A stretch of 52,647 nt of DNA from a virus (Duplodnaviria; Caudoviricetes), in IMG/VR virus record IMGVR_UViG_3300049846_001015, positions 1-52,647 of that record; one strand, written 5' to 3'. A program made the position numbers and the translations under genes. This document shows, one piece after another, positions 9,002 to 40,898 of this stretch. Under the pieces are notes generated by a model. The model had not been told where the DNA came from. It worked only from the letters and a program-made list of their open reading frames with translations, and did not search any database. How positions within the stretch are numbered: position 1 is the stretch's first letter; every line of letters begins with the position of its first letter.

Positions 9002-9019
9002 AGTTATTCTCCAGAAAGG

Positions 9020-9093
9020 TAAGCCGGGCGGGATTCGAACCCGCAACCGACGGATTAGAAATCCGTTGCTCGATCCAATTAAGCTACCGGCTC
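9020..9093 (-). tRNA. tRNA-Arg(UCU)
   Basis: Cloverleaf: GAGCCGG/CCGGCTT acceptor, GCTT/GAGC D-stem, ACGGA-TTTCTAA-TCCGT anticodon arm, GCGGG-TTCGAAT-CCCGC T-arm; CCA not encoded. Confidence 0.92.
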
Positions 9094-15365: not shown

Positions 15366-15723
15366 TCTCCAGGATAGGTTCCAGGTAAGGAGGAGAGTAG
15401 GTCGGGGGTTTGATCCATTTTCCCCCCTCGTCCCGGTGCCCTCCGACTTTGCTCATGTTCGAACGATGGATTTCATCGAAAATCTGGTCGGTTGGCAAGC
15501 CGCAGCTTACCGCCGTCCCGAGAACGACGTACATCAAATCCCCGAGGGCGTCCGCCACTTCCACGATATCGTGGTTGTCGAAAGCTTCTTGAAGTTCTTC
15601 AAGCTCCTCCTTGATAAGCCGAACGCGGAGTTGCACCGTTTGAGAATCCGGAATTCCGGGTCGTTCCCGGACAACCAGCCCGAAAGTCTCATGGAATTCC
15701 TTAACCATTTCTTGTTCGCGCAT
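15340..15723 (-). CDS. MazG-like/PRA-PH nucleoside triphosphate pyrophosphohydrolase
   Basis: VKEFHETFG..LIKEELEEL..EVADALGDLMYV..EIHRSNMSK. Confidence 0.85.
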   Translation of the reverse strand: MREQEMVKEFHETFGLVVRERPGIPDSQTVQLRVRLIKEELEELQEAFDNHDIVEVADALGDLMYVVLGTAVSCGLPTDQIFDEIHRSNMSKVGGHRDEGGKWIKPPTYSPPYLEPILENADASTTL

Positions 15724-16255
15724 CGAATACTCCTAAAAACTTGCCTTTTGAGTGTTCTGGGATGAGAGTTTCCGGCTGGGGGAAGTTGAACGGCTCCTTA
15801 GTAAGATCCAAAGCCCTGTATCCGGCAGACGGCTTATCCATCCGTTTCGAGTTGTCCGCTCCCGGATAAGTGGTGGAAATGAACCAGTCGCACCGAGTTT
15901 TCCGCAAAACTTGCAGAATCATCTCGTTTGGAAGATGGATAAAGACATCTCTTGCAACGACGATCTCTGCGGTAAATTGACGCACATCCAGAATGTTAGA
16001 CTCGGTGCAATCATAAGCTTCCCATGAAGGATGGGATTTGATATCAAAACCTCGATATTGCGCACCGGATTGAAAGAGGGCATGGCGGGCAAAGTTCAGA
16101 TCTCCACAGCCCAATTCGATTATGACAGAGGGATTCTTCTCTTTGAGAATAGCGGGAAGTCGGGCAATAACTTCCTGCATATTGCAAACTTTCGACCCGG
16201 CCCCGCAGCGAGTTTCGTCCCCACCCCCGAACCAATCAGTCGGAAACTTTTCCAT
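15701..16255 (-). CDS. class I SAM-dependent methyltransferase
   Basis: CGAGS, IELGCGD, Y.GFDI and RDVFIHL motifs. Confidence 0.8.
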   Translation of the reverse strand: MEKFPTDWFGGGDETRCGAGSKVCNMQEVIARLPAILKEKNPSVIIELGCGDLNFARHALFQSGAQYRGFDIKSHPSWEAYDCTESNILDVRQFTAEIVVARDVFIHLPNEMILQVLRKTRCDWFISTTYPGADNSKRMDKPSAGYRALDLTKEPFNFPQPETLIPEHSKGKFLGVFDARTRNG

Positions 16256-16946
16256 GTTTTTCCTTCAACTTCTTGAAAATCACGCCTTTCGGATGCCGAT
16301 TAGACCCCCTAATCGGGGATCTCTTACGGTAGATGTAGATGGGATCTTGGATATTCGCGATTTCGCTCGACGATAGGACTTTCAAGAGCGGGAACATCAA
16401 AGCCACGTCGGTACACACTCTCAGCCACTTGTTGTCCAATACAAAGTGAGATTCCTTGAGATGCGGCAACAGAGAAGTATGGAAAGTTCGGAGAGGGGGA
16501 GCTTTGAAGTTCTTATCTTCCAGAAAGGAATTGTCGTCTATTTGCTCAGGAGTGTACCATCGAGGATGCCCGCCTCCGATTCCCTTATGACGCGCCCACC
16601 CTCCCAGTGTCATTTTGAATCCCTGTTCATAGTAAGGAGCTACGATGGAAAAGGCATCTCTCCTCAGATAATCGTCGAGATCCAGTTGAACGGCAACGCC
16701 GGGTCCGGAAATTTCTTGAATCAAATCCCAGCGAGACTTAGCCGCGCCTAGATTGGCTTTTGTCCGGGAAGCATGAATTCGGGGATCTTCTTTAGCCAAT
16801 CTCTCAAGTTTCCCAAACGTGGCGTCGGAAGATCCGTCATCCCGGACAAAGGCTTCCCATTCCTCTGTCTGGGAGTACAAAGAACTGTACCAGTCATCGA
16901 CGAATTTCTCACAGTTTAACCCGCAAGAAATTACGAAGAATTTCAT
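16236..16946 (-). CDS. glycosyltransferase family 2
   Basis: SLYSQT...DDGSSD...N.G...LDLDD. Confidence 0.85.
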   Translation of the reverse strand: MKFFVISCGLNCEKFVDDWYSSLYSQTEEWEAFVRDDGSSDATFGKLERLAKEDPRIHASRTKANLGAAKSRWDLIQEISGPGVAVQLDLDDYLRRDAFSIVAPYYEQGFKMTLGGWARHKGIGGGHPRWYTPEQIDDNSFLEDKNFKAPPLRTFHTSLLPHLKESHFVLDNKWLRVCTDVALMFPLLKVLSSSEIANIQDPIYIYRKRSPIRGSNRHPKGVIFKKLKEKHGKVSD

Positions 16947-17605
16947 CGAAAGTCCTCTAGGTTAAGAGAGATTCGGTGACCCATCGGCTTCTTAGTGAAG
17001 ATGTTGGAGTCGTGGATTACCTGGAGACCGCCGATTTTTGGTATCCTAATCTGCTTAGAGAACAGCTTACAAATTGCGGCGTGAGAGGCTGAATAGCAAT
17101 GCCGCTGCCGAGTAGAATGAATCACCGAAACAAACTGGGAATTGTTCAGGGGCCGAAGGACTTTGCGGAATTCTCCAGTCTGGATATCTATCTGCGCGGT
17201 ATCCCAATCAACCAAAACTGGATGGGGCTTCTTAACGAAATCCGCTTTTCTCCGGAGACCTGTCCAAGTTTCGTAGAGAGTTTTCACGAAATCCCGACAA
17301 AGCATATCGTCACTGTCCATCCGGGTAGTGATCGAACCCTCAGGAAATTCGTAATCCTGGATGGGACTGAAAGAGACTTCGGCAAATTCTTTCAGATACC
17401 GAAGGATTTCCAGGGAGGTGTCTTTGTGGCAAGCAAAAACGGCGATAAAATCCTTGCGGGTTTGTTTCTCCAGAGAGGGTCTCATGTACTCTCGAACAAG
17501 GGAGAGTCGGCGGTTTACCCATTCCTCGTTCAACCAGAGCGCCTTAGCGGCCTGAACCCTATCCGTTGGGATAGAGTTGAAACGAGTTAGGATGTAATGC
17601 GACAC
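16943..17605 (-). CDS. GT-A fold glycosyltransferase (putative rhamnosyltransferase-like)
   Basis: HYILTRFN...W..RRL....PSL.KQT..DF...TTRMDSDD. Confidence 0.75.
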   Translation of the reverse strand: MSHYILTRFNSIPTDRVQAAKALWLNEEWVNRRLSLVREYMRPSLEKQTRKDFIAVFACHKDTSLEILRYLKEFAEVSFSPIQDYEFPEGSITTRMDSDDMLCRDFVKTLYETWTGLRRKADFVKKPHPVLVDWDTAQIDIQTGEFRKVLRPLNNSQFVSVIHSTRQRHCYSASHAAICKLFSKQIRIPKIGGLQVIHDSNIFTKKPMGHRISLNLEDFR

Positions 17606-20836: not shown

Positions 20837-21747
20837 GCTTTTCTGACATCGGCTTTCTCCAATCGTTTTTCAATCAACTTGACATAATCGGGGTTTAATT
20901 CAATCCCCACGGCATTTCTGTTGTTTTGTAAGGCTACTTGGATCGTAGTCCCGCTTCCGACAAAAGGATCGAGAACTGTCCCATTCTCGGGGCATCCGGC
21001 TAAAATGCAAGGCAGAATAAGCTCGGGAGGGAAAGTGGCAAAGTGTGCCCCCTTGAAGGGTTTAGACGTAACCGTCCAAACGGATCTCTTATTTCTCTTG
21101 CCGTCGCCGGGAATTCCTGCCCGCCCCCCATCGTTCCTATCCCCATTAGCCCCAGACTTCTCGGCTAAACTCCCGTTAAATTTTCCAGGCGTTCCTGCTG
21201 GCTCGGAAATCGCGTCCTTGTCAAAGTAGTACCTCGGACCCTTCGACAGCAAAAAAATGTACTCGTGCGCCTTCGTACACCTATCTCGCACACTTTCTGG
21301 CATCGGGCTCGGCTTGTTCCAGATAATGTCCTGGCGGAGATACCACCCATCGGATTGCAGGGCGAACGCAACTCGCCAGGGAATGCCGATTAAGTCTTTC
21401 GGTTTGAGGCCAGGGACATTAGCGCCAGATCGTGAAATTCCACGATGCCGAGCAAGATCGGCCTGCTTTCCACCGCCAGAGTGACCACCGTTTCTACCTG
21501 CGTTGTAACTATCCCCCAAATTCAGCCACAAAGTCCCGTCATCCCGCAATACCCGCCGAACACTCCTAAATACCTCCACCAACTTCCCAACATACTCGTC
21601 AGGAGTCTCCTCAAGACCGATCTGTCCCGTAACCCCATAGTCTCGCAATCCAAAGTACGGCGGACTCGTCACACAACAATGTACGGAGTTATCAGGCAGT
21701 TCTTTAATTTTCTCAAGAACATCGCCGACGAGAACTTGGTATCCCAC
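20833..21747 (-). CDS. DNA methyltransferase, N4C/N6A beta class
   Basis: TSPPY, HFATFP and VLDPFVGSGTT motifs; GTG start overlapping the previous TAG. Confidence 0.92.
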   Translation of the reverse strand: MGYQVLVGDVLEKIKELPDNSVHCCVTSPPYFGLRDYGVTGQIGLEETPDEYVGKLVEVFRSVRRVLRDDGTLWLNLGDSYNAGRNGGHSGGGKQADLARHRGISRSGANVPGLKPKDLIGIPWRVAFALQSDGWYLRQDIIWNKPSPMPESVRDRCTKAHEYIFLLSKGPRYYFDKDAISEPAGTPGKFNGSLAEKSGANGDRNDGGRAGIPGDGKRNKRSVWTVTSKPFKGAHFATFPPELILPCILAGCPENGTVLDPFVGSGTTIQVALQNNRNAVGIELNPDYVKLIEKRLEKADVRKA

Positions 21748-22316
21748 TAGTCCCTCAGTTTCATATCTTCGGTTTTTCGAACAGTCCAACAGCTTCCCCT
21801 TTTCTTCACTACGCCTTTGGGGAAACTCCCGTCAACAGCTTTTACTACATCCGGCCAGCCGGTCCCGTAGTCGTGACCGGCCATCCATCCCCCGGGTTTG
21901 ACCTTCGGGAACCACGCTCGGATATCCGCTCTAACGGCGTTGAGCGTGTGCTCCATGTCGATGAACATCACGTCAATGCTATTATCCGCAAAATCGGGGG
22001 CGGCTTCCAGAGAAGTTTTTCGAATTGGCGTGAATTTCCGCTCTCCCATGTTCTCAAGGAACATAGCGTAAACGTCATTCGTAACAGCCAGCTTGTGGAA
22101 AGTTTCAAGCTCGTTCACCGAACCCTTCCAGGTATCTACGATGAAAATTTGTGCGTTGGGCCGGATCTCCGCAGCTTTATCGCATAGATAAGAACTGCTT
22201 TTCCCTAACCAAGCGCCGCCCTCCACAAAAACACCGTTTTCCGGCATCTCTTGTAGAAGGAAATCAAACACTTGCGGGTAGTCAAACCAACCGCCGATTT
22301 GTGAAGTCGGTTTCAT
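21747..22316 (-). CDS. class I SAM-dependent methyltransferase (Methyltransf_24-like)
   Basis: VEGGAWLGKSS, VDTW.GS, FIDMEH and VKPGG..AGHDY motifs. Confidence 0.85.
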   Translation of the reverse strand: MKPTSQIGGWFDYPQVFDFLLQEMPENGVFVEGGAWLGKSSSYLCDKAAEIRPNAQIFIVDTWKGSVNELETFHKLAVTNDVYAMFLENMGERKFTPIRKTSLEAAPDFADNSIDVMFIDMEHTLNAVRADIRAWFPKVKPGGWMAGHDYGTGWPDVVKAVDGSFPKGVVKKRGSCWTVRKTEDMKLRD

Positions 22317-22678
22317 TTCACACTCGCAAAAATCTGAGGATATTTCTCGGAGAGAAACTTGTAAAAACTCTCGCAGTCCTTCTCCATGCGGGCCTCGGCA
22401 GTAGCCGCGCAGAACTTCATTGCATTCTCCATCTCTTGTGGATCGAGATAGCAAGGTACGGAAACGAAACAGCCTATCTTCAAACTGTTGTAATTTCCTA
22501 AATTTTTCGTAACTGCGCGATCCGCCGAAACAGTAGCCGTGGGAACGCCCTCCATATTCGGCAGAGAGATCTTCTCCACTGTTTCTACGTCCTGAATAAT
22601 AGTCCCCGAGGACGAGAATACTCGGCTAACCGAGATAACAGACTGGCGACTTTCAACAGATTTACAGCACTTACTCAT
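22313..22678 (-). CDS. hypothetical protein
   Basis: T.NLGNYNS.KI...VSVPC motif; ATGA overlaps. Confidence 0.65.
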   Translation of the reverse strand: MSKCCKSVESRQSVISVSRVFSSSGTIIQDVETVEKISLPNMEGVPTATVSADRAVTKNLGNYNSLKIGCFVSVPCYLDPQEMENAMKFCAATAEARMEKDCESFYKFLSEKYPQIFASVK

Positions 22679-24436: not shown

Positions 24437-24876
24437 TAAGCCACTCGGCCTTTAGAAGCTAAGAAATCGGCGCGGTCGTTATAGGAGTTGCCGGAGTGTC
24501 CGCGAATCCAGGAAACCTTAAACCGCTCTACTTGTTCCAGGAGAGACTCAATGTGCTGCCAAAGATCCGAATTCGCAACGGGTTTCCCGCTGGAAGTTTT
24601 CCAGTCGTTCCTAGCCCACATCGCCGCCCACTCCACCATGCCTTGCTGGCAATACTGAGAGTCGGTCACGATTTCAAAGTAGGGAAGTTTTTCCCCTATT
24701 GAATATTCGATAGCTCTAATTATAGCTTGAAGTTCACAGCGATTGTTAGTAGTTCCGGTAAGTCTACCGTGTTTTTCGAAAATAACTTTGTCATTCTCGA
24801 CAACGACAAACGCCCAACCGCCACGGCGAGACTTGGGAGAAAAAGCCCCATCCGTGTAAATCTTGGTATGACTCAC
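24436..24876 (-). CDS. rnhA: ribonuclease HI
   Basis: IYTDGA, TTNNRCEL.A, TDSQY, VAN.DLW, W.RGHSG..YNDRAD.LA. Confidence 0.95.
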   Translation of the reverse strand: MSHTKIYTDGAFSPKSRRGGWAFVVVENDKVIFEKHGRLTGTTNNRCELQAIIRAIEYSIGEKLPYFEIVTDSQYCQQGMVEWAAMWARNDWKTSSGKPVANSDLWQHIESLLEQVERFKVSWIRGHSGNSYNDRADFLASKGRVA

Positions 24877-26759
24877 TTAGCCTCACCCCACTTGGAAACA
24901 ACTTTGATTTCAGCGCGAATCGGAATACCTAAGTCGATTGAATTTTCCATCGCTTCTCGTTTGATCTCAATCGTTTGGTCAATAAGGTCATTAGGGACTT
25001 CCGTAACAAGTTCGTCGTGAACCATGTTAATCAGCTTGACCCGGCCCCACAGCCCTGCCTCTCTGAGAAGCTTCCGGTATCTGACCATGCAAAGTTGCAC
25101 CAGATGCACCGTGGATGCTTGGACCGGGAAATTGATAAGTTGTTTCAGGGAATGAGTTTGGAATTGCTTAATTTCATTCTTCGGGATTCTTCGTCGGCGT
25201 CCGAACAAGTCTCGGATTTCGCCGGTAGTTAGGAGTGTCCGGCGCATCGAACGATGCCACGCGGCAAGGGTTTTACGCCCCCGCATAATACGGTTGATAA
25301 CCTCCTCGCACTCGTCCAGGCTCAAACGGGGGTGAAGTTCCTTCAAACGGATAGCCGACCCCGCGTATAGGACAAGAAAATTGATTTCCTTCCCATCTGC
25401 CCGAGTCATTCCAAGTTCTTTCGGGAGGTAGTCGAGAACTTGGGAGTGCAAATCGAGACCATGCCAAAACGCGGGATTCCCTTTCTTCCAAGCCCGCTCA
25501 TCCTCCTCTACCCCGCACTTAGGGCAAGAATGCTGGATAGCGGAGTTCTCTCCGGAGGCTCCACAGATGGTGCATTTCCAGCAAGTGTACGCTTTCAGTA
25601 AGTCCGGCTCTTGGGAAATCAAGCCGCCAATTCTCAACTCAATTTGAGAATAGTCGGCCACTATCAAACTATGACCCACGGGGGGAACAAAAGCGTCCCG
25701 AATTCGCAGTCCATCGAAGGATTCCCGAAGCTTCTTGTCGTGTACGATATTACCGCCGAGACTCGTCGGCATGTTCTGTAAGTTCGGACCGCTAGATCGG
25801 AGCCGACCCGTCTTGCTAGTAAGCCAGAAACTCGCATGGATTCTTCCGTCCTTGTTTTCTTTTGTCTGAGTAGTGCAGGGCTCTAGGTAGGTGGAAATCA
25901 TCTTGTCGCAAGTTCGGTATGCAACGATTTTCTCGCATACCGCGTATTTCTTGGCAAGATGAACCATCGCGGCGGCGTCCACCGACCACCGTTTACCGCT
26001 CTTTGTTTTGGCGATGCCCGACGTGGAATACCCAAGTTCTCCGAAAAGGCGGTTGGCTATCTGGTCCCCAGAGTTCAAATCCAAACGACCAATCTTCTCA
26101 TGGACCTCCCTCTCCAATTTTTCACGCAGAAGGACGAATTTGGCGTAAAGATCGCGGCATTCGTCCAAGCTCCAGCTTACCCCGAAACCTTCCAGATCCG
26201 TGAAACAGATTAGGGAGGGCATAAGGATCTTGGTATAGATATTCCAAAACCCTTCGGCTTGTAGCTGGGGTTTGAACATCGCGTAAAGCCGAAGTTCCGC
26301 TATAACGTCATTGAGAGCATATTGACGAAAGCGGGGAGAGTCCAATCCTTCGGAAGAGGCTTCCTTGAAGTCCTCCATCTCCATCCCCAGTAGTCTCGGC
26401 GCGAGTTTCTTCAAGCCAAGACCGCTCTCGTCAACATTCTCATCCAAGAGATTAGCCGCCACCATCGTACAGCGGATTTCCGGGTCCGGCCACTGAATTC
26501 CGGATTCCCTTAAACAGTGGAGATCGTACTGCGCGTGGTGGGCGACTATCTCTAGGTCGGGGATGAAAGTCGAGTTGACAATTTCCTTAATTCTGCCCAA
26601 ATCCGTGACATATTCGCTATGAATCCCCTCAGCCGTGAAGGTAGCGAATCCGCATCCGTGCAGGACAAATCCCTTTTTAGTCCAGTGGGTGCCGGGATCG
26701 TGTTCCACGTCGAAACACAGCACCTTGGACTTATGGGCCAACTCGACGATATCCCCCAT
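24873..26759 (-). CDS. polA: DNA polymerase family A (3'-5' exonuclease plus polymerase)
   Basis: FDVE and YALND exonuclease motifs, TGRLRSSGPNLQN, ADYSQIELR, K.INF..LY, NFPVQ, VHDEL. Confidence 0.95.
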   Translation of the reverse strand: MGDIVELAHKSKVLCFDVEHDPGTHWTKKGFVLHGCGFATFTAEGIHSEYVTDLGRIKEIVNSTFIPDLEIVAHHAQYDLHCLRESGIQWPDPEIRCTMVAANLLDENVDESGLGLKKLAPRLLGMEMEDFKEASSEGLDSPRFRQYALNDVIAELRLYAMFKPQLQAEGFWNIYTKILMPSLICFTDLEGFGVSWSLDECRDLYAKFVLLREKLEREVHEKIGRLDLNSGDQIANRLFGELGYSTSGIAKTKSGKRWSVDAAAMVHLAKKYAVCEKIVAYRTCDKMISTYLEPCTTQTKENKDGRIHASFWLTSKTGRLRSSGPNLQNMPTSLGGNIVHDKKLRESFDGLRIRDAFVPPVGHSLIVADYSQIELRIGGLISQEPDLLKAYTCWKCTICGASGENSAIQHSCPKCGVEEDERAWKKGNPAFWHGLDLHSQVLDYLPKELGMTRADGKEINFLVLYAGSAIRLKELHPRLSLDECEEVINRIMRGRKTLAAWHRSMRRTLLTTGEIRDLFGRRRRIPKNEIKQFQTHSLKQLINFPVQASTVHLVQLCMVRYRKLLREAGLWGRVKLINMVHDELVTEVPNDLIDQTIEIKREAMENSIDLGIPIRAEIKVVSKWGEAK

Positions 26760-33086: not shown

Positions 33087-34736
33087 CTACATCTTGAGAA
33101 GGGCTTCGGGAGTATCCTCACCGATAGTCCAAATTTCGTAATCGAAAAATGGCAGCTTATTCTTCACGATCAATTCGAGATCCGTTCTTCGCTTATGGCT
33201 TCGGGCGAAAACAGCCCTCATCTGTTCGGCTGGGAATCTATCCTGACCCCAGATAAACCGATCCTGCAACCTAGCGACAATCCACTTATAGTCGGAGAAT
33301 CGGTTAAAGATATGAGGCTCGGCGTGAGCAAATGAATCTTGCTCGTCAGTGAAAACCAACATATCCGCAGGAGGCCAGGGATCGAAAATATCTTTCACCT
33401 TAACGTAGGCGTCTTTCTTTTCAGAAGAAGTCGGCTTGTCACTTTGCCCGACGATTGAAACACCGAACTGTACCGCCCAATCAATTGTCTCTCCGTCGTA
33501 ACTGCCCAACTCGAACACAGAGGCTTGCGTAAGAGAAGCAATTCGGGCAACTGACTGCTTCGACCCCCGGAGAGTATGCTGCCTGCGATAACCATATCGG
33601 TGTTTCCCCCAAAAGTCGATTCCCAGATCTTGTTCAAATACCTCTTCCCAAGAGTCGATCAATTGGGATACGGAAAACCGCTCTAGCCGGGAGTCATCAT
33701 ACTTGACCGAGGCAATGGTAGCGGAAGCTTCAACAAATCTTTTGATATCCGGAACCTTCCAAGTCGTCCCCACAGAATATCTAGTGGTAGCTGGGGGAAT
33801 CAAACCCGGATAATCTTCCCCAACAATTTCTGACATAGTTGTGTGGTCGGTAAGTAATTGCGGTAGCCCCGCCGCCATACACTCGGCCACGGTCAGACCC
33901 CAGCCCTCACCGTGAGAGGTATCAATACGCCAATCTGACATATTGATAATCTCGTTCAAGTCCTCAACGGGGAGATGCTTGTTCCAGTCAAATCCCGAGA
34001 ATACTACGTTATCCTCGATCCCATATACTTTCGCCATTTTGCGGAGATTGAATCCGCCGCGAGTTTCTTCCACGTCGGCTTTCGTGTGCGCGAGAAACTG
34101 AATCTCCGGGATGGTCTCTTTCATCCTCGCAACGTAGTCGAACGCGAGATCCCATCCCTTGTGCCAGAAATTTCTGTTGATATTCAGAACCAACGGGGCG
34201 TCGGGAAAAATAGGAACTCGCCAAAGCTTCGACCACTTCTTCCGGAGGGAACTTTTCGAAACATCCAACTTCCTAAACGCGGGATTAACCGCATGATGGA
34301 TAACTCGGTCGCTTTCTGCCCGAGTCCACAACTTCTGAGAAAAGTAGGACAGGTGAATCACCGCGCCCGGAGCAACTCCCCACCAGAGATTCAGCATATC
34401 CTCTGGGACTGTTGATCCTTCGTAGGGAAACCAGTAGTAAATCGGAATATTCGCCGGGGCTACTTTCAGATCCATCCAGCCGTTGATTCTTTGGGCGGAA
34501 TCGAAGAAAATAGCTACGTTAGGCCGGATCTCGGAAAGTACACGGTCAATCCCCGCCGCGTCGTAGGCTTCCGTGCGAATTTCTTCCCAAGGGAAAGCGT
34601 TTTCAGCTACGCCATACGGCTCGCAGACGACAACAACTTCGTGCCCCCGGTCGTGAAATCCTTGAGCTAGGAGTTGAGTTTGCTGCCCGAACCCTGTACC
34701 CCGGTTGGGGGAATTGCTGATAATCGCGATCTTCAC
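33087..34736 (-). CDS. glycosyltransferase family 4 (GT-B) with extra C-terminal domain
   Basis: MKIAIISNSP..GTGFGQQ, NRN.WHKG.D, TSHGEGWGL..AECMAAGLP. Confidence 0.88.
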   Translation of the reverse strand: MKIAIISNSPNRGTGFGQQTQLLAQGFHDRGHEVVVVCEPYGVAENAFPWEEIRTEAYDAAGIDRVLSEIRPNVAIFFDSAQRINGWMDLKVAPANIPIYYWFPYEGSTVPEDMLNLWWGVAPGAVIHLSYFSQKLWTRAESDRVIHHAVNPAFRKLDVSKSSLRKKWSKLWRVPIFPDAPLVLNINRNFWHKGWDLAFDYVARMKETIPEIQFLAHTKADVEETRGGFNLRKMAKVYGIEDNVVFSGFDWNKHLPVEDLNEIINMSDWRIDTSHGEGWGLTVAECMAAGLPQLLTDHTTMSEIVGEDYPGLIPPATTRYSVGTTWKVPDIKRFVEASATIASVKYDDSRLERFSVSQLIDSWEEVFEQDLGIDFWGKHRYGYRRQHTLRGSKQSVARIASLTQASVFELGSYDGETIDWAVQFGVSIVGQSDKPTSSEKKDAYVKVKDIFDPWPPADMLVFTDEQDSFAHAEPHIFNRFSDYKWIVARLQDRFIWGQDRFPAEQMRAVFARSHKRRTDLELIVKNKLPFFDYEIWTIGEDTPEALLKM

Positions 34737-34981
34737 TTCTTTCTCCTATTCGCTATCCAATCCCCGACGGACTCAAAGTATTCTCCACGACCCTCTAAGG
34801 CAGCCAGTCGGCCAGCCATTTTCTGCTTATCGAATTCCGAGAAACAAGTATTGCAGAGACCGTGAAAATTCCACCCCTTGGGAACCCAAGTATCTCCGCA
34901 ACAGCGGCATACGGCGGGCTCGCGGGGTTTTTCCATGTCTCGGTAGAGATTGGAAAGAAATTCGGTTAGAGCATCACTCAT
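34733..34981 (-). CDS. small zinc-finger protein
   Basis: CRCCG...LCNTCF. Confidence 0.55.
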   Translation of the reverse strand: MSDALTEFLSNLYRDMEKPREPAVCRCCGDTWVPKGWNFHGLCNTCFSEFDKQKMAGRLAALEGRGEYFESVGDWIANRRKK

Positions 34982-35019
34982 AGCTTTATGGGCTTTCCGA
35001 AAAACTTGTCGTATCATAA

Positions 35020-35086
35020 AGGCAAGTGCGGGAATCGAACCCGCCTTACGCATCTTGAAACTGCGATGTCTCCCAGAGCACCTGCC
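35020..35086 (-). tRNA. tRNA-like gene with UCA anticodon (putative tRNA-Cys-derived opal decoder), shortened D-arm
   Basis: GGCAGGT/ACTTGCC acceptor with U discriminator; CGCAG-TTTCAAG-ATGCG anticodon arm with a G.A closing mismatch; 4-nt variable loop; GCGGG-TTCGATT-CCCGC T-arm. Confidence 0.7.
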
Positions 35087-35092
35087 CGTAGC

Positions 35093-35416
35093 TTAGGACT
35101 GGATTCCAAGCCAAGCGTGAACGTCCTCGAAATCGGCCCGATAGAAACGGTTGATTTTGTTGAGAAGCGTTTTGCAGTCAGGGAGAACTTTCGCGGTCTT
35201 TTCGACTTCCTTGTAGGGAATACCGCGAATGAAAGCCAGAGCCAATTGAGCCATCCGAGATTCGTTCCTGAGACGGTAAATCCGGTGCCACTCAAGTTGG
35301 TTGCGATAATCCGGCGCGGCTTTCTTGGATTCTTTCCGGATTATCTTTGACTCCGCGCTGAGAGATTTGACATTGACGCGGAGACGGTGGATAGCGAAGG
35401 TTTTTTCGAGAAACAT
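35093..35416 (-). CDS. conserved basic phage protein
   Basis: L.V.VKSL.AES.IIR.E....L..HR...R.E.R.AQLA.AF.RG.PY..VE; TAAGGAG RBS. Confidence 0.7.
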   Translation of the reverse strand: MFLEKTFAIHRLRVNVKSLSAESKIIRKESKKAAPDYRNQLEWHRIYRLRNESRMAQLALAFIRGIPYKEVEKTAKVLPDCKTLLNKINRFYRADFEDVHAWLGIQS

Positions 35417-35434
35417 GGTAAATGACTCCTTAAT

Positions 35435-35488
35435 GGTATTGAAATGGAAACGCCGCCCATCTCTCGGCGGACCCCGGCATTCAGTACC
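35435..35488 (-). promoter_or_regulatory. structured RNA leader or hairpin
   Basis: Outer pairing GGTACTGAATG/CATTTCAATACC enclosing a CCGCC/GGCGG stem, ending just 5' of the RBS. Confidence 0.4.
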
Positions 35489-35496
35489 CTCTCAAT

Positions 35497-35718
35497 TTAC
35501 CATCGCCCATCGGGACACTCCTCGGATTTCAGTTGAATTTTCTCGGCGAGAAAACACCCGCAAAGGCCGCACACGCTTCCCGCGCGGAATTCACAAGTCG
35601 AGCAAATATTGTGGGCCTCTACTTGAGCCCCGTAATCCCTTGTGGATTTACCCCAGGCTCGGGCTTGCGCTCGGACGCATTTGAAAGCGCCGACAAACAA
35701 TCCAATGATGAAATTCAT
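35497..35718 (-). CDS. DUF6171-like Cys-rich protein
   Basis: ICSTC....VCGLCGCFL..K......CP.GRW. Confidence 0.7.
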   Translation of the reverse strand: MNFIIGLFVGAFKCVRAQARAWGKSTRDYGAQVEAHNICSTCEFRAGSVCGLCGCFLAEKIQLKSEECPDGRW

Positions 35719-35942
35719 TTCTTCGGCTCGCATTTAGTACAAACTTGGCAACAGACCTCCGGACCCTTCGTTCGAGCCAGAGTGCATTTTCCGTGGACTT
35801 CGCAGTTGTAGATCGGAATCCCCGGACACTTCGAACAGGAACTTGTTCGTTTAGTGCCGCATTGCTTGCCGCGATGGGTGCAACTTCGGATCTGTTGTAG
35901 GGTAAACCCGTTGGCGTAAGTCCGAGCCGCCCCGGTTTTCAT
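35715..35942 (-). CDS. small Cys-rich protein (paralogue B)
   Basis: ANGFT..C.HRGK...C..C..HG.C...C..C; ATG four nt after the paralogue A stop. Confidence 0.7.
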   Translation of the reverse strand: MKTGAARTYANGFTLQQIRSCTHRGKQCGTKRTSSCSKCPGIPIYNCEVHGKCTLARTKGPEVCCQVCTKCEPKK

Positions 35943-35946
35943 CAGA

Positions 35947-36186
35947 TTATTGTTCTTGGCGTTTTTCATAGTTAGTACAAGTGGCACAGGGCTGCTGTTT
36001 CTGGGTTGAAGTATACTTTTTTATCGCACACAGACCGTGTACGGCGCATTCAAATACGACTCCTTTACCCCGTCAGCCGCCCCCGACTTTATCTCCTGTG
36101 GGTTTACCGCGATGAACACACAACTCTAACTCGGCCTCTGTGAATCCGTTGGCGAGTTTTACGTTTTTGCCCTTCTTGCAACTCAT
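35947..36186 (-). CDS. small Cys-rich protein (paralogue A) with in-frame TGA at 36073-36075 (Cys or Sec recoding candidate)
   Basis: MSCKKGKNVKLANGFTEAELELCVHRGKPTGDKVGGG*RGKGVVFECAVHGLCAIKKYTSTQKQQPCATCTNYEKRQEQ; similarity to paralogue B on both sides of the TGA. Confidence 0.75.
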
Positions 36187-36204
36187 AGGACACCGAAAGG
36201 ACTG

Positions 36205-37500
36205 CTAACGAGGTTCGAACTTCTTGATCTTTCCGTCGTCCTCGAATTGATCCAGAGTTACTTGGTCGAATCGGTCTCGACGGAATTGCTCTGGACGCAT
36301 GTGGATTCCCCGCTCTCCCAAATAGAGACCCCGATTTACGGTAGGAGCAAGTCGGACGAATCCCGCATCGTCGAAACCGATCCAGGTAGCCCCATCTTGA
36401 CCAGACGGAATTGAGGCGTGTAATATCCGACGGTGTTCAATGGAATTGGCATCTGGAATAAATCCGCCCTGGAATGTCTTGAAGTTGGATTGGGCTTTCG
36501 GCTTAAACCACTCCATAATGGTTCGGTGAGGACGGCGAGAATACTCCACGTTGAGGAATAAGTTCTGGTACTCCAGAACGAATCCTCGGATGGAGTCCCA
36601 AGTTGATTTCGGCATCAGGTAGCCCCACCAATTTGTGTAGGTGGCGTAAACTTGCCGTTGTAGCGGGATCTTCTGGTCTTTCGGCAAAAGGCACTTAGAC
36701 CATCCCTGAACAGCGCCGATATTCGTGTAGTTCTTCTGACCCCACTTGAGAAGGTTTTCACAGAACTGGAGATAGTTGTCGGAGGGAACCATGTCATCTT
36801 CGAAGATGAAAACACGGTCGTACCCCATGTTCTGGAAAAGCTGTTCTCGGGCGTCGATTAGAGTTCGCCCGCAGCCCAAATTCATCCGGTGTTTTACGAC
36901 GTTGAATCCGTCGAGGTCCGAAGCAATTTCGTCTCGTATTCGTGATTCATGCGATGCCAGTGGACGATCCAGGAAAGCGAAACAATCATATTCTGACAGC
37001 GTTTTGTTTTTACGAAGGGCTCCGAGGGTACGAGAGAAGTAGTCCCTTCGATTACACCCGATAATGGCGATAGCCGCATCTTTTTTCTTCTCGAACATGG
37101 AGGAAATATTGTAGGCGTGGGCCTCGAAAGCCATCTTCCCGGTTACTCGCTCGCGCATTAGCAACTCGGGACGTTTCGCGGCGTCCGCTGGCTTTTTCTC
37201 CATGATCTTCGACCATTCGTGGGGGTTCTTCAAAGGGCGAATCGTGGTCACCCCCTTACGAACGTCACGCCCTTCCCATTTCTGGGAATGCCAGTAAAGC
37301 TTGCAGAGAACATTACCGGATTGGCTGAGAATCAATCGGGGAGTTCCCAATTCCGAGATCAACTCCCAAGTGGAGAATTCGGGGTCTTCAAACTTGCCAT
37401 CGGGTTTGAAACGAATCCGGCGATTGCTGGAGTTGGGACTCGTTACAGCAAACTCCTCTTGACTCACAAAGAGATCATAGATCTCATAGTTTTCAGCCAT
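36205..37500 (-). CDS. GT-A fold glycosyltransferase with N-terminal extension
   Basis: AIAIIGCNR.DY..RTL..L, FLD, NLGCG and FIFEDD motifs. Confidence 0.8.
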   Translation of the reverse strand: MAENYEIYDLFVSQEEFAVTSPNSSNRRIRFKPDGKFEDPEFSTWELISELGTPRLILSQSGNVLCKLYWHSQKWEGRDVRKGVTTIRPLKNPHEWSKIMEKKPADAAKRPELLMRERVTGKMAFEAHAYNISSMFEKKKDAAIAIIGCNRRDYFSRTLGALRKNKTLSEYDCFAFLDRPLASHESRIRDEIASDLDGFNVVKHRMNLGCGRTLIDAREQLFQNMGYDRVFIFEDDMVPSDNYLQFCENLLKWGQKNYTNIGAVQGWSKCLLPKDQKIPLQRQVYATYTNWWGYLMPKSTWDSIRGFVLEYQNLFLNVEYSRRPHRTIMEWFKPKAQSNFKTFQGGFIPDANSIEHRRILHASIPSGQDGATWIGFDDAGFVRLAPTVNRGLYLGERGIHMRPEQFRRDRFDQVTLDQFEDDGKIKKFEPR

Positions 37501-38972: not shown

Positions 38973-40898
38973 CTAGCTGACTTTCTCTTTCTCCCTCGCA
39001 CGGCGGATAGCCTCTTTCACCAATCCTGGAATCGGGTCTGTCGGATTCAGCTTCCACGCCAAGCCGGTCTTAACCGAGAGTGCGGCGGCTTTGATCTTTT
39101 CGGACCAACTCCAACGGTCCTGTCCGGCTTTAATCTGCTTAACGATTCGCTCGAATTGTTGCTCGCAGCCGTCACAGCCGAGTTTATCCATTTCCTCAGC
39201 TTTGGCCTTGCAATCGCATCCGGGCTTTTCCGCTACCCCAATTTCCTTGAGCATGTTGGTCAACTCGGTGCCCGGTCCTTTCCCTGGAGGGAAAATATTG
39301 ACCGGAGATGCGGGGCGGTCCACTTCCTGCAAACCAATAACAGTAATCCCCCACTTATGCTCGGCGTGGTAGGCGACGAACGCTTTGGGATTTTGATTGA
39401 GATACCACTTGATTCCTTCGAAAAGACCGGGAGAATTTCCACCCTCTCCGACGTTGCCGTTTGAACCAGTTCCGCGAATAACGATAAACCGTCGGACTTG
39501 GCCTCCATGCAAACTGAGTTCTGCTTTAAGCCGCTCTCCGCTATGAACGGTATCCAAATACAGAAGATCCGTCTCGTCGATAATTGGGACCGAAAGGCTA
39601 TCTGTATCCGCGTAGATTTCGACCGACCCTTGGGGGAGGGCTTCAATCACTTTCCGGAGAACCAGATCCGGCTCTTTCGTATAGCTCACCAATTTTAGCG
39701 GCTTGCCCGCTGCGAAGGCAATAGTAGATTCTCGCTTCTTGGTGAATTCGGTGACTCGATTACATTTCGAAGCGAACTCGCGGAGAGTGTCGAAATGTTC
39801 GTCGAGATCCCGCTTACCTGCTTTGCCCCACTCAAACAAAGCTGCGATATCTGTAAGTTGAGGGGGCGGCTGGCTTCCCTGCAAATTACGCAGTTGAAGC
39901 GCCGATGCCGGTCGGAAATGCTTGATCGGATTATCCAACAAGTATTCCCACTGGTCTTTGGGGAGCTTGAACCCGCTGTGGATTTGGCGGAGTTTATCGG
40001 GAGACCGGCGAATCAACTCCAAACTAACCGAATGGACTTCAACCAAATGCTTTGGCAAGTCCTCATCCGAGATGTCTTGATTTACGAAGTGGTCGTAAAT
40101 ATCGTCTAGCGGTAATCCTAGTTCTTGGTGCCCGAGGACGTAATTCCGAACCTTATCGTACAGGAGTGCCGGATACTTATTCCCCCCGACTCGGCCAAAA
40201 CGATGAATCCATCGCAAAAAGGGAAGGCAGAGAGCCCGCCCCCCGGCCTGCCTGAACTTCTCATGGATGTAGAGTTCCTCCCCGCCAAATCCTCGGAAAT
40301 AAGGATTGAACCCTACCCATGATTTCTTGAGACACGCAAAAACTCCCAGACCTTGGCCGGGAATCTCGAAAGGAGGATTTTGCGCGTCGGCGGCTCGGTT
40401 GTCGCAGCCCCACGTTCCCCACATGGCCGAACGCCATACGGGATCGAATTGAGTTTCGAAACTGTTTGTGGGAAGCACTTTCCGTAGATCGGCGACAAGC
40501 GCTACGTCGTCATAGACCAAAGGACCGCTGACGATATCCTTCGAATCCGGGTAAACTTCGAAGTAAGCGCGGAGAAGGTCAATCACTCCGACGGGAAACA
40601 TGACGTGGCAATCCATTACCAAAACCAAGTCCCCGGTAGCTTCCCTAAAGATCCGCTCCCGAGGTTGGGTGGTCCCGGTACTTTCCGGCATCGGAATATA
40701 GCGGACGGTGACAGAATTTTGCGCCCGCATCCATTTCCCAAGGAAACTCCGGAGATGTTTGCTGTGTTCACTTCCGGGAGAGTTATCGACTACGATAATT
40801 TCGCAGTCTTTCAGATTTTGGTGGAGCGCCAAGCTCTCAAGGGTGAAGTATACCCCGTCAAAATCTTCGTAATGAGCCATTCCAATTGTAAGTTTCAT
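38973..40898 (-). CDS. GT2 glycosyltransferase fused to methyltransferase-like and Cys-containing C-terminal domains
   Basis: IIVVDNS, LVMDCH, FRGFGGEE; DLLYLDTVH; C-terminal GPGTEL...CDC.....MD..GC.GC. Confidence 0.82.
   Translation of the reverse strand: MKLTIGMAHYEDFDGVYFTLESLALHQNLKDCEIIVVDNSPGSEHSKHLRSFLGKWMRAQNSVTVRYIPMPESTGTTQPRERIFREATGDLVLVMDCHVMFPVGVIDLLRAYFEVYPDSKDIVSGPLVYDDVALVADLRKVLPTNSFETQFDPVWRSAMWGTWGCDNRAADAQNPPFEIPGQGLGVFACLKKSWVGFNPYFRGFGGEELYIHEKFRQAGGRALCLPFLRWIHRFGRVGGNKYPALLYDKVRNYVLGHQELGLPLDDIYDHFVNQDISDEDLPKHLVEVHSVSLELIRRSPDKLRQIHSGFKLPKDQWEYLLDNPIKHFRPASALQLRNLQGSQPPPQLTDIAALFEWGKAGKRDLDEHFDTLREFASKCNRVTEFTKKRESTIAFAAGKPLKLVSYTKEPDLVLRKVIEALPQGSVEIYADTDSLSVPIIDETDLLYLDTVHSGERLKAELSLHGGQVRRFIVIRGTGSNGNVGEGGNSPGLFEGIKWYLNQNPKAFVAYHAEHKWGITVIGLQEVDRPASPVNIFPPGKGPGTELTNMLKEIGVAEKPGCDCKAKAEEMDKLGCDGCEQQFERIVKQIKAGQDRWSWSEKIKAAALSVKTGLAWKLNPTDPIPGLVKEAIRRAREKEKVS

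Follow-up and report, generated by a model that had tools for sequence, protein, structure and literature searches.

A small cysteine-rich phage gene with an in-frame UGA at a near-invariant cysteine column, and a candidate opal suppressor tRNA encoded nearby

In classical nonsense suppression, an anticodon mutation is paired with a nonsense codon, and the original amino acid is restored. A bacterial tRNA with a related capacity, tRNAReC (selC*), was reportedly described by Vargas-Rodriguez et al. in 2018. As far as the accessible text of PMC13582414 goes, tRNAReC has a UCA (or GCA) anticodon and a discriminator U, directs Cys to UGA where homologues have Cys, is shaped like selenocysteine (Sec) tRNA with a length of at least 80 nt, and works together with SelB and with a SECIS (selenocysteine insertion sequence). 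Bacterial tRNA-Sec (selC, RF01852) is characterised in the accessible part of PMC5330540 by a length of 90–101 nt, a very long variable arm, a 6-bp D stem with a 4-nt loop, an essential G73, and a 13-bp helix formed by the acceptor and T stems. Stop-codon recoding as known from phages affects the whole genome (TAG to Gln, TGA to Trp); it goes along with depletion of the reassigned stop as a terminator and with many in-frame stops, which are concentrated in late and lysis genes (Borges et al., available text of the preprint, 10.1101/2021.08.26.457843). The locus analysed here belongs to the IMG/VR virus record IMGVR_UViG_3300049846_001015 (Duplodnaviria; Caudoviricetes); the window, i.e. the whole stretch of DNA analysed, is this entire linear record of 52,647 bases. 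On its minus strand, the window carries a small gene with one in-frame TGA, designated A (36186..35947), and, about 1 kb downstream of this TGA, a non-canonical 69-nt tRNA with the anticodon UCA (35087..35019). With all mechanisms taken together, A is quite likely to be a functional recoded gene. That its UGA is read through by the phage-encoded tRNA, acting as a probably Cys-accepting opal suppressor, is the favoured mechanism and is given about an even chance.

Gene A consists of 79 codons and a TAA (35949..35947): 37 codons from the ATG at 36186, the in-frame TGA as codon 38 (36075..36073), and 41 open codons (36072..35950). A preliminary description of this DNA had proposed such a hidden gene, with the TGA as the tenth codon after HRGK and opposite a Cys of the adjacent paralogue B (35942..35715, minus strand, 75 amino acids, ending in TGA), and with conserved motifs continuing to a TAA 4 nt before the ATG of B. 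All of these features were borne out, and the part after the TGA scored 32.5 bits against a model of the family. When the TGA was read as Cys, A aligned with B across the TGA in BLASTP (37.7 bits, E 3e-10, 21 of 56 positions identical), with the TGA opposite Cys36 of B, which is encoded by TGT. Three Gly codons precede the TGA, and its context is GGC TGA CGG, with C as the next base after the UGA. Beyond the TGA, the frame contains no ATG, GTG or TTG, so that the second half of A could be produced only via read-through. A Logan contig of sequencing run X2, which belongs to a different study than the possible source run X1, covers positions 35987–36300 at a depth of 4.4 with 0 differences; the TGA is therefore not an assembly error. 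In a codon-usage scan of the coding strand, the TGA of A was the top-scoring in-frame TGA, and it is the sole convincing one on the coding strand of the window.

A is a stand-alone member of a family without a name, whose small, Cys-rich proteins have the motif C-x-HRG ... (C)xxC ... [FY]xCxxHGxC ... CxxC. Neither A nor B gave a Pfam or PHROGs match, and the family as a whole gave no match in Pfam or PDB. Nothing was returned by a single-sequence protein search with A or by a search for shorter homologues in which the alignment covered only 30–33 amino acids. A profile of A, B and P0002 (the only close homologue of B, 76% identical), searched against 1.84 billion representatives at E ≤ 0.001, yielded 96 proteins. 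Very long and low-complexity matches were left out, and 84 sequences were aligned; the counts that follow refer to the 83 members other than A. At column 38, where A has the TGA, Cys is found in 81 members (F and P in one each). Cys is likewise found at columns 23 (83 of 83), 47 (82), 53 (78), 67 (82) and 70 (83), and His at column 50 (66). After its TGA, A retains C47, H50, C53, C67 and C70; the Cys of column 35, the first of the CxxC knuckle, is present in 65 members and absent in A. This pattern of Cys and His columns suggests two putative metal sites. The family hidden Markov model (HMM) was built from 24 sequences, with A and its relative P0051 excluded, and scored 62.6 bits for the whole of A and 24.9 bits for residues 1–37; the score given above refers to residues 39–79. 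None of 1000 composition-preserving shuffles of the 41 residues after the TGA reached that score (maximum 13.1 bits). Family members were also located in four IMG/VR loci, and the search flagged a stop inside the match in L031 and L033 and none in L032 and L034. Upon translation, L031 and L033 both had Cys at the TGA column, and the flagged stops were their terminal stops.

The age of the stop was judged from the protein sequence of P0051, which has 37 amino acids, is 65% identical to residues 1–37 of A and ends at exactly the same point. Both genes of the A lineage that were found (2/2, A and P0051) thus have a stop at codon 38, and because P0051, at only 65% identity, ends at the same codon, the stop is old. 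P0051 and P0002 each occur once in the Logan assemblies, on a contig of 3898 bases that is presumably the same for both. In the flanking parts, the two phages differ at 24–35% of amino acid positions. Neutral decay was simulated by substitutions only, starting from the present sequence of A, with 500 copies per level. At 0.2 substitutions per site, 166 of the 500 copies were still open and 17 kept at least 25 bits; at 0.3 substitutions per site, the corresponding numbers were 119 and 1. Since an unselected remnant should have decayed at such divergence, selection appears to act on the second half of A. Cys3 is common to A and P0051 and absent from B and P0002, and might stand in for the missing Cys35 ligand.

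The UCA tRNA was called by ARAGORN, which labels it 'tRNA-SeC'. Its anticodon TCA (35058..35056), which reads UGA, is central in the 7-nt loop TTTCAAG. ARAGORN called two tRNAs in the window, the other being Arg(UCU) at 9018–9093; in 7.9 Mb of control sequence, made up of the reversed window and 150 dinucleotide shuffles, one tRNA (Gly) was called and none with UCA. The UCA tRNA fits exactly into a 77-nt gap that separates the stop of a 107-amino-acid open reading frame (ORF; 35093) from the start codon of the next one (ATG at 35017). Its T arm is canonical, its variable loop has 4 nt, and its D arm has about 9 nt (stem of 2–3 bp); the discriminator is U in either register, and CCA is not encoded. 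ARAGORN folds it in the 8/5 register (8-bp acceptor, 5-bp T stem). In an alignment with the tRNA-Cys of Phaeobacter phage MD18, the layout after the T stem is the same (seven acceptor bases, then U), and because of this agreement a 7/5 register with an extra 5' G facing U73 is equally good; the acceptor end then reads G1:C72, G2:C71, C3:G70, U73. Over 25 nt (T arm, 3' acceptor strand and discriminator), the UCA tRNA is identical at 24 positions to the annotated tRNA-Cys of phages MD18 and DSS3_MAL1, which were the best matches among 50,697 phage records (E 7e-3). This match is a hint of Cys ancestry, not proof. A nearest-neighbour scoring of the UCA tRNA against 290 phage tRNAs was set aside, as it was biased by locus selection.

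Relatives of the UCA tRNA were sought with sequence patterns. A first pattern returned 25 viral loci, all of them tRNA-Glu(UUC) with a register offset of one base and hence no homologues. With a stricter pattern, 10 loci each were returned from metagenomes and viruses and 2 from genomes, and no UCA tRNA was among them. The pattern also matched a recurring element with a T-arm-like motif (L036, L038, L040, L041, L043), in which ARAGORN calls no tRNA; gut assemblies are the source of several of the metagenome records, and the metagenome copies were aligned. The viral loci L045–L054 were scanned for tRNAs only, and their likeness to this recurring element was assumed.

According to the favoured mechanism, synthesis of the full 79-residue product of A would need translational read-through of one UGA, and only the 37-residue stub would be made without the UCA tRNA. 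The agent would most likely be this tRNA of the phage itself, charged with cysteine probably by the cysteinyl-tRNA synthetase (CysRS) of the host, and insertion of Cys would restore a near-invariant Cys ligand of a probably metal-binding domain. U73 and the anticodon make up the CysRS identity set in the accessible text of PMC8762117, and charging with Cys is plausible because U73 together with C35 and A36 fits this set. A change of one base each would turn the codon TGT into TGA and the anticodon GCA into UCA, and the two changes match; Cys is favoured because the column requires Cys and because these two changes mirror each other. We infer all three elements, i.e. that read-through occurs, that this tRNA acts, and that Cys is inserted. 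More tentatively, the system might be a private single-site extension of the code, in which a minimal UCA tRNA derived from tRNA-Cys would translate one UGA as Cys in a small metal-binding protein of a glycosyltransferase module, with UGA staying the main stop; this narrower proposal is possible but doubtful. If it is true, synthesis of full-length A would be gated by expression of the tRNA, and suppression might be specific for the UGA-C context, or the tRNA might be delivered via a route other than elongation factor Tu, given the possible 8/5 helix.

Compared with the known systems, the locus resembles the stop-recoded phages of Borges et al. in that a phage tRNA pairs with a stop, a phage gene has an in-frame stop, and host synthetases are presumed to act (10.1101/2021.08.26.457843, available text). 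Unlike those phages, it has one gene with an in-frame stop in 52.6 kb and uses TGA as its commonest terminator, and the column here demands Cys, whereas the reassignments given in that text are only TAG to Gln and TGA to Trp. Further recoded genes may be present in the part that is missing, as the completeness of the record is only about 51%. With tRNAReC, the UCA tRNA shares the anticodon and the discriminator U, as well as a UGA where homologues have Cys; in contrast to tRNAReC, it has 69 nt and no long variable arm, is phage-encoded, and is accompanied by no SECIS-like fold that could be seen. The UCA anticodon and a possible 8/5 acceptor/T helix are shared with bacterial tRNA-Sec, from which it departs in length, variable arm, D stem, G73 and Rfam gathering score. 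As in classical suppression, the changes TGT to TGA and GCA to UCA are complementary one-base changes; here, however, the pair seems fixed and conserved in two diverged phages and is not a laboratory mutant. The system is a variant of phage suppressor-tRNA recoding and a functional analogue of tRNAReC that belongs, strictly speaking, to neither group.

Several observations weigh against decoding of the UGA by this tRNA. The D arm of the UCA tRNA is very short at only about 9 nt, and a G.A mismatch closes the anticodon stem; the cloverleaf has a free energy of -20.7 kcal/mol, which is 6.7 kcal/mol above the minimum free energy fold. The tRNA lies below the Rfam gathering thresholds (RF00005 included), which only the tRNA-Arg at 9020–9093 passes, and its best Rfam clan match is tRNA-Sec (RF01852) with 25.2 bits (E 0.0055 for a search of 301 nt), where 47 bits are needed for gathering. 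Possibly it is a tRNA that has decayed, and, as no homologue was found in the pattern searches, covariation gives it no support. In a crude parse of 286 out of 290 phage tRNAs (four with fewer than six acceptor pairs were skipped), U73 was not exclusive to Cys: it was present in 7/7 tRNAs for Cys, 16/19 for Gly, 14/17 for Thr and 5/10 for Trp. In addition, published phage TGA suppressors have been assigned to Trp (Borges et al., 10.1101/2021.08.26.457843, available text). The use of TGA as a terminator points in the same direction. TGA is the commonest stop, ending 31 of the 64 minus-strand ORFs of at least 80 amino acids, and there is no excess of back-up stops (median extension of 17 codons after TGA versus 9 after TAA and 25 after TAG); for these reasons, an efficient suppressor would be costly. 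It should select against TGA stops or for back-up stops, and neither is seen. Genuine TGA stops are followed by C in 3/31 cases versus 11/33 for TAA and TAG together (Fisher p 0.033). Because genuine TGA stops avoid a following C and the in-frame TGA has one, suppression may be weak and context-dependent. Genome-wide reassignment of TGA was rejected for the half of the genome in the record, given these terminators and the single convincing in-frame TGA.

The simplest competing explanation is a pseudogene or truncation, in which the TGA would be a true stop, a 37-residue stub or nothing would be made, the downstream homology would be a remnant, and the UCA tRNA would be unrelated or non-functional. 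One TGT-to-TGA change is enough for this, TGA is the commonest genuine stop of the phage, the UCA tRNA is structurally weak, and A is without the first Cys of the CxxC knuckle, which Cys3 of A and P0051 could nevertheless replace. We consider this explanation rather unlikely. According to the preliminary description, a recent pseudogene would be indicated if no other homologue had TGA at this position and selection on the downstream part were relaxed. This did not refute recoding: P0051, the one orthologue that was found, likewise stops at this codon, and with its 65% identity indicates an old stop. The 41 downstream codons have also stayed open, with five Cys and His ligands kept and 32.5 bits retained, a score that neutral drift of 0.2–0.3 substitutions per site would rarely leave, even at the lower level of 25 bits used in the simulation. 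Leaky termination by the host alone, in which a near-cognate host tRNA (Trp or Cys) would read UGA-C at a low level with the phage tRNA uninvolved, is distinctly less probable. It would be in keeping with the UGA-C context of the TGA in A and with the scarcity of C after genuine TGA stops, and Poole, Brown and Tate (1995) reportedly found UGAC to be the weakest of the signals in E. coli. In bacteria, however, read-through of UGA leads to Trp in most cases, and the Cys ligand would then not be restored. The nearby UCA tRNA would also be left as a coincidence; ARAGORN called only one tRNA of any kind in the 151 control sequences. That UGA_C is a weaker terminator is also stated, for a eukaryotic setting, in the accessible text of PMC9841425, and was counted in favour of such a leak.

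If the phage tRNA suppresses UGA while charged with a different amino acid, either Trp, as in the known TGA-recoded phages, or Gly, as in code 25, a variant of A without the Cys ligand would result. Trp would be in line with the tryptophanylation of TGA suppressors in E. coli and with the fact that, for phages with a code unlike that of the host, only TAG-to-Gln and TGA-to-Trp changes are reported in the available text of Borges et al. (10.1101/2021.08.26.457843); Gly would be in line with the U73 that bacterial tRNA-Gly also has (PMC8762117, accessible text) and with the three Gly codons before the TGA. This outcome is nonetheless improbable in view of Cys at the TGA column in 81 of the 83 members and of annotated tRNA-Cys genes as the best match of the 3' half of the UCA tRNA. 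The acceptor end of tRNA-Gly is C2:G71, G3:C70, unlike the G2:C71, C3:G70 of the UCA tRNA in the 7/5 register, and bacterial tryptophanyl-tRNA synthetase prefers G73, which argues against charging with Trp. A SelB- and SECIS-dependent mechanism, with either Sec inserted by host machinery or Cys inserted via SelB on a tRNAReC-like tRNA, is very improbable. It would be suggested by the UGA/Cys pair with conserved downstream coding, by the 8/5 fold, which has the helix length of bacterial tRNA-Sec (PMC5330540, accessible part), and by UCA together with U73, the recognition signature of tRNAReC (PMC13582414, accessible text); a targeted mechanism would also explain why TGA persists as the main stop. 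The tRNA itself fits poorly, with its 69 nt, 4-nt variable loop, 2–3 bp D stem and U73, and its eighth acceptor pair may be merely the extra 5' G opposite U73. In general folding tests, the stretches of 40, 50 and 60 nt that follow the UGA showed no stronger fold than 200 shuffles (z -0.77, -0.15 and -0.36; z -0.97 in another test), and no Sec genes (selA, selB and selD included) were found among the 37 window proteins scanned in Pfam. The position moreover resembles that of a structural metal ligand and not a redox CxxU site. Sec is thus unlikely because the tRNA lacks the hallmarks of tRNA-Sec and because no fold beyond that of shuffles follows the UGA. The preliminary description had proposed Sec or Cys recoding: recoding, as opposed to a recent pseudogene, is upheld by the conserved Cys column and the downstream coding, and the Sec half is not. 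The phage-encoded UCA tRNA, overlooked there and newly seen here, is a more direct route to Cys recoding than SECIS and SelB.

If a conserved single UGA is read as Cys by a phage tRNA, in a genome that otherwise ends half its genes with TGA, a UGA-to-Cys suppressor would be described from a phage for the first time; no earlier one was found in the literature searched, with supplements lying outside the scope of the search. Cys would be added to the amino acids to which stops are assigned in phages, suppressor tRNAs could be gene-specific switches rather than code changers, and a very small natural opal suppressor would be available, which is of interest to the engineering of genetic codes. Cases of this kind are systematically hidden by gene callers and by 'tRNA-SeC' labels, and here the databases contain only stubs of 37 amino acids.

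The role of A and B is likely that of an accessory metal-binding module of phage glycosylation enzymes, because the domain is fused or adjacent to glycosyltransferases in other members and because A and B are situated between glycosyltransferase-like genes. The Cys-rich domain is N-terminally fused to a heptosyltransferase domain in P0020 (Glyco_transf_9, E 5e-11) and to Mannosyl_trans3 and a methyltransferase in P0074; at the IMG/VR locus L030:3467-6516, it heads a 492-amino-acid ORF with a glycosyltransferase family 2 (GT2) gene after it. Directly upstream of A, a 431-amino-acid ORF (36205..37500, minus strand) resembles a GNT-I-like glycosyltransferase (Pfam E 0.0072, below the cut-off), and a 549-amino-acid GT4-type glycosyltransferase (33087..34736, minus strand; Glycos_transf_1, E 4.2e-14) is encoded downstream of the tRNA. 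Pfam matches further identified GT2 genes at 38973-40898 and 16236-16946, a rhamnosyl-transferase-like ORF at 16943-17605, and methyltransferases at 21747-22454 and 15701-16255. Sugar-modifying genes are unusually numerous in this phage (33087-40898 and 16236-17605).

Small Cys-rich ORFs cluster around the tRNA (34733-35733). A 78-amino-acid Cys-rich ORF (35733..35497, minus strand) has a weak DUF6171 match (Pfam E 7.7e-5, below the cut-off) and a match to phrog_13558 (E 1.1e-9), and a 94-amino-acid Cys-rich ORF with a CxCC...CxxC pattern (35017..34733, minus strand) adjoins the tRNA. B may start nine codons earlier than given above, at the ATG at 35969, as the upstream codons (35943-35969) resemble the N-terminus of P0002; from this start, B would overlap the last eight codons of A. 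A terminator-like hairpin (35453-35470, minus strand) is located just after the 78-amino-acid ORF; it precedes the AAGGAG of the 107-amino-acid ORF, a strong ribosome-binding site. It may be that A, B and the 78-amino-acid ORF are transcribed together as a unit to which the tRNA does not belong. The scan for promoters and terminators was uninformative, with eight terminator-like sites versus 4.0 ± 2.2 in shuffles.

For the record as a whole, a completeness of 51% was estimated by CheckV, and no terminal repeat of 10–599 nt was found in it. Nearly all genes of the window are carried on the minus strand. Pfam matches among the window proteins include a tape-measure protein, DNA polymerase A, RecA-like, DnaB-like helicase, SNF2-type helicase and primase-like proteins, an N6/N4 methylase, two further methyltransferases and several glycosyltransferases. 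In the 37 scanned proteins, no aminoacyl-tRNA synthetase, elongation or release factor, Sec-pathway enzyme or integrase was recognised. Terminase (Terminase_6N) was unmatched, and portal and capsid proteins were unrecognised among the scanned ORFs; the head and lysis modules are probably missing from the record, and further in-frame TGAs could sit there. Searches with blastn and tblastn against the 50,697 phage records gave no DNA relative. Locus searches of viral contigs with A, with an A-based alignment and with the 431-amino-acid neighbour returned nothing, as did the alignment against metagenome and genome contigs. A search with the gene for DNA polymerase A returned a single distant relative (L001, 39% identity), in which neither a gene of the Cys-rich family nor a tRNA was found. 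The sequencing runs that contain DNA of the window are labelled as freshwater sediment and freshwater metagenomes, with no RNA datasets listed among them. The DNA polymerase A of the window (24873-26759) contains a rubredoxin-like insert at residues 394–420 (RUBY_RBDX, E 5.7e-4).

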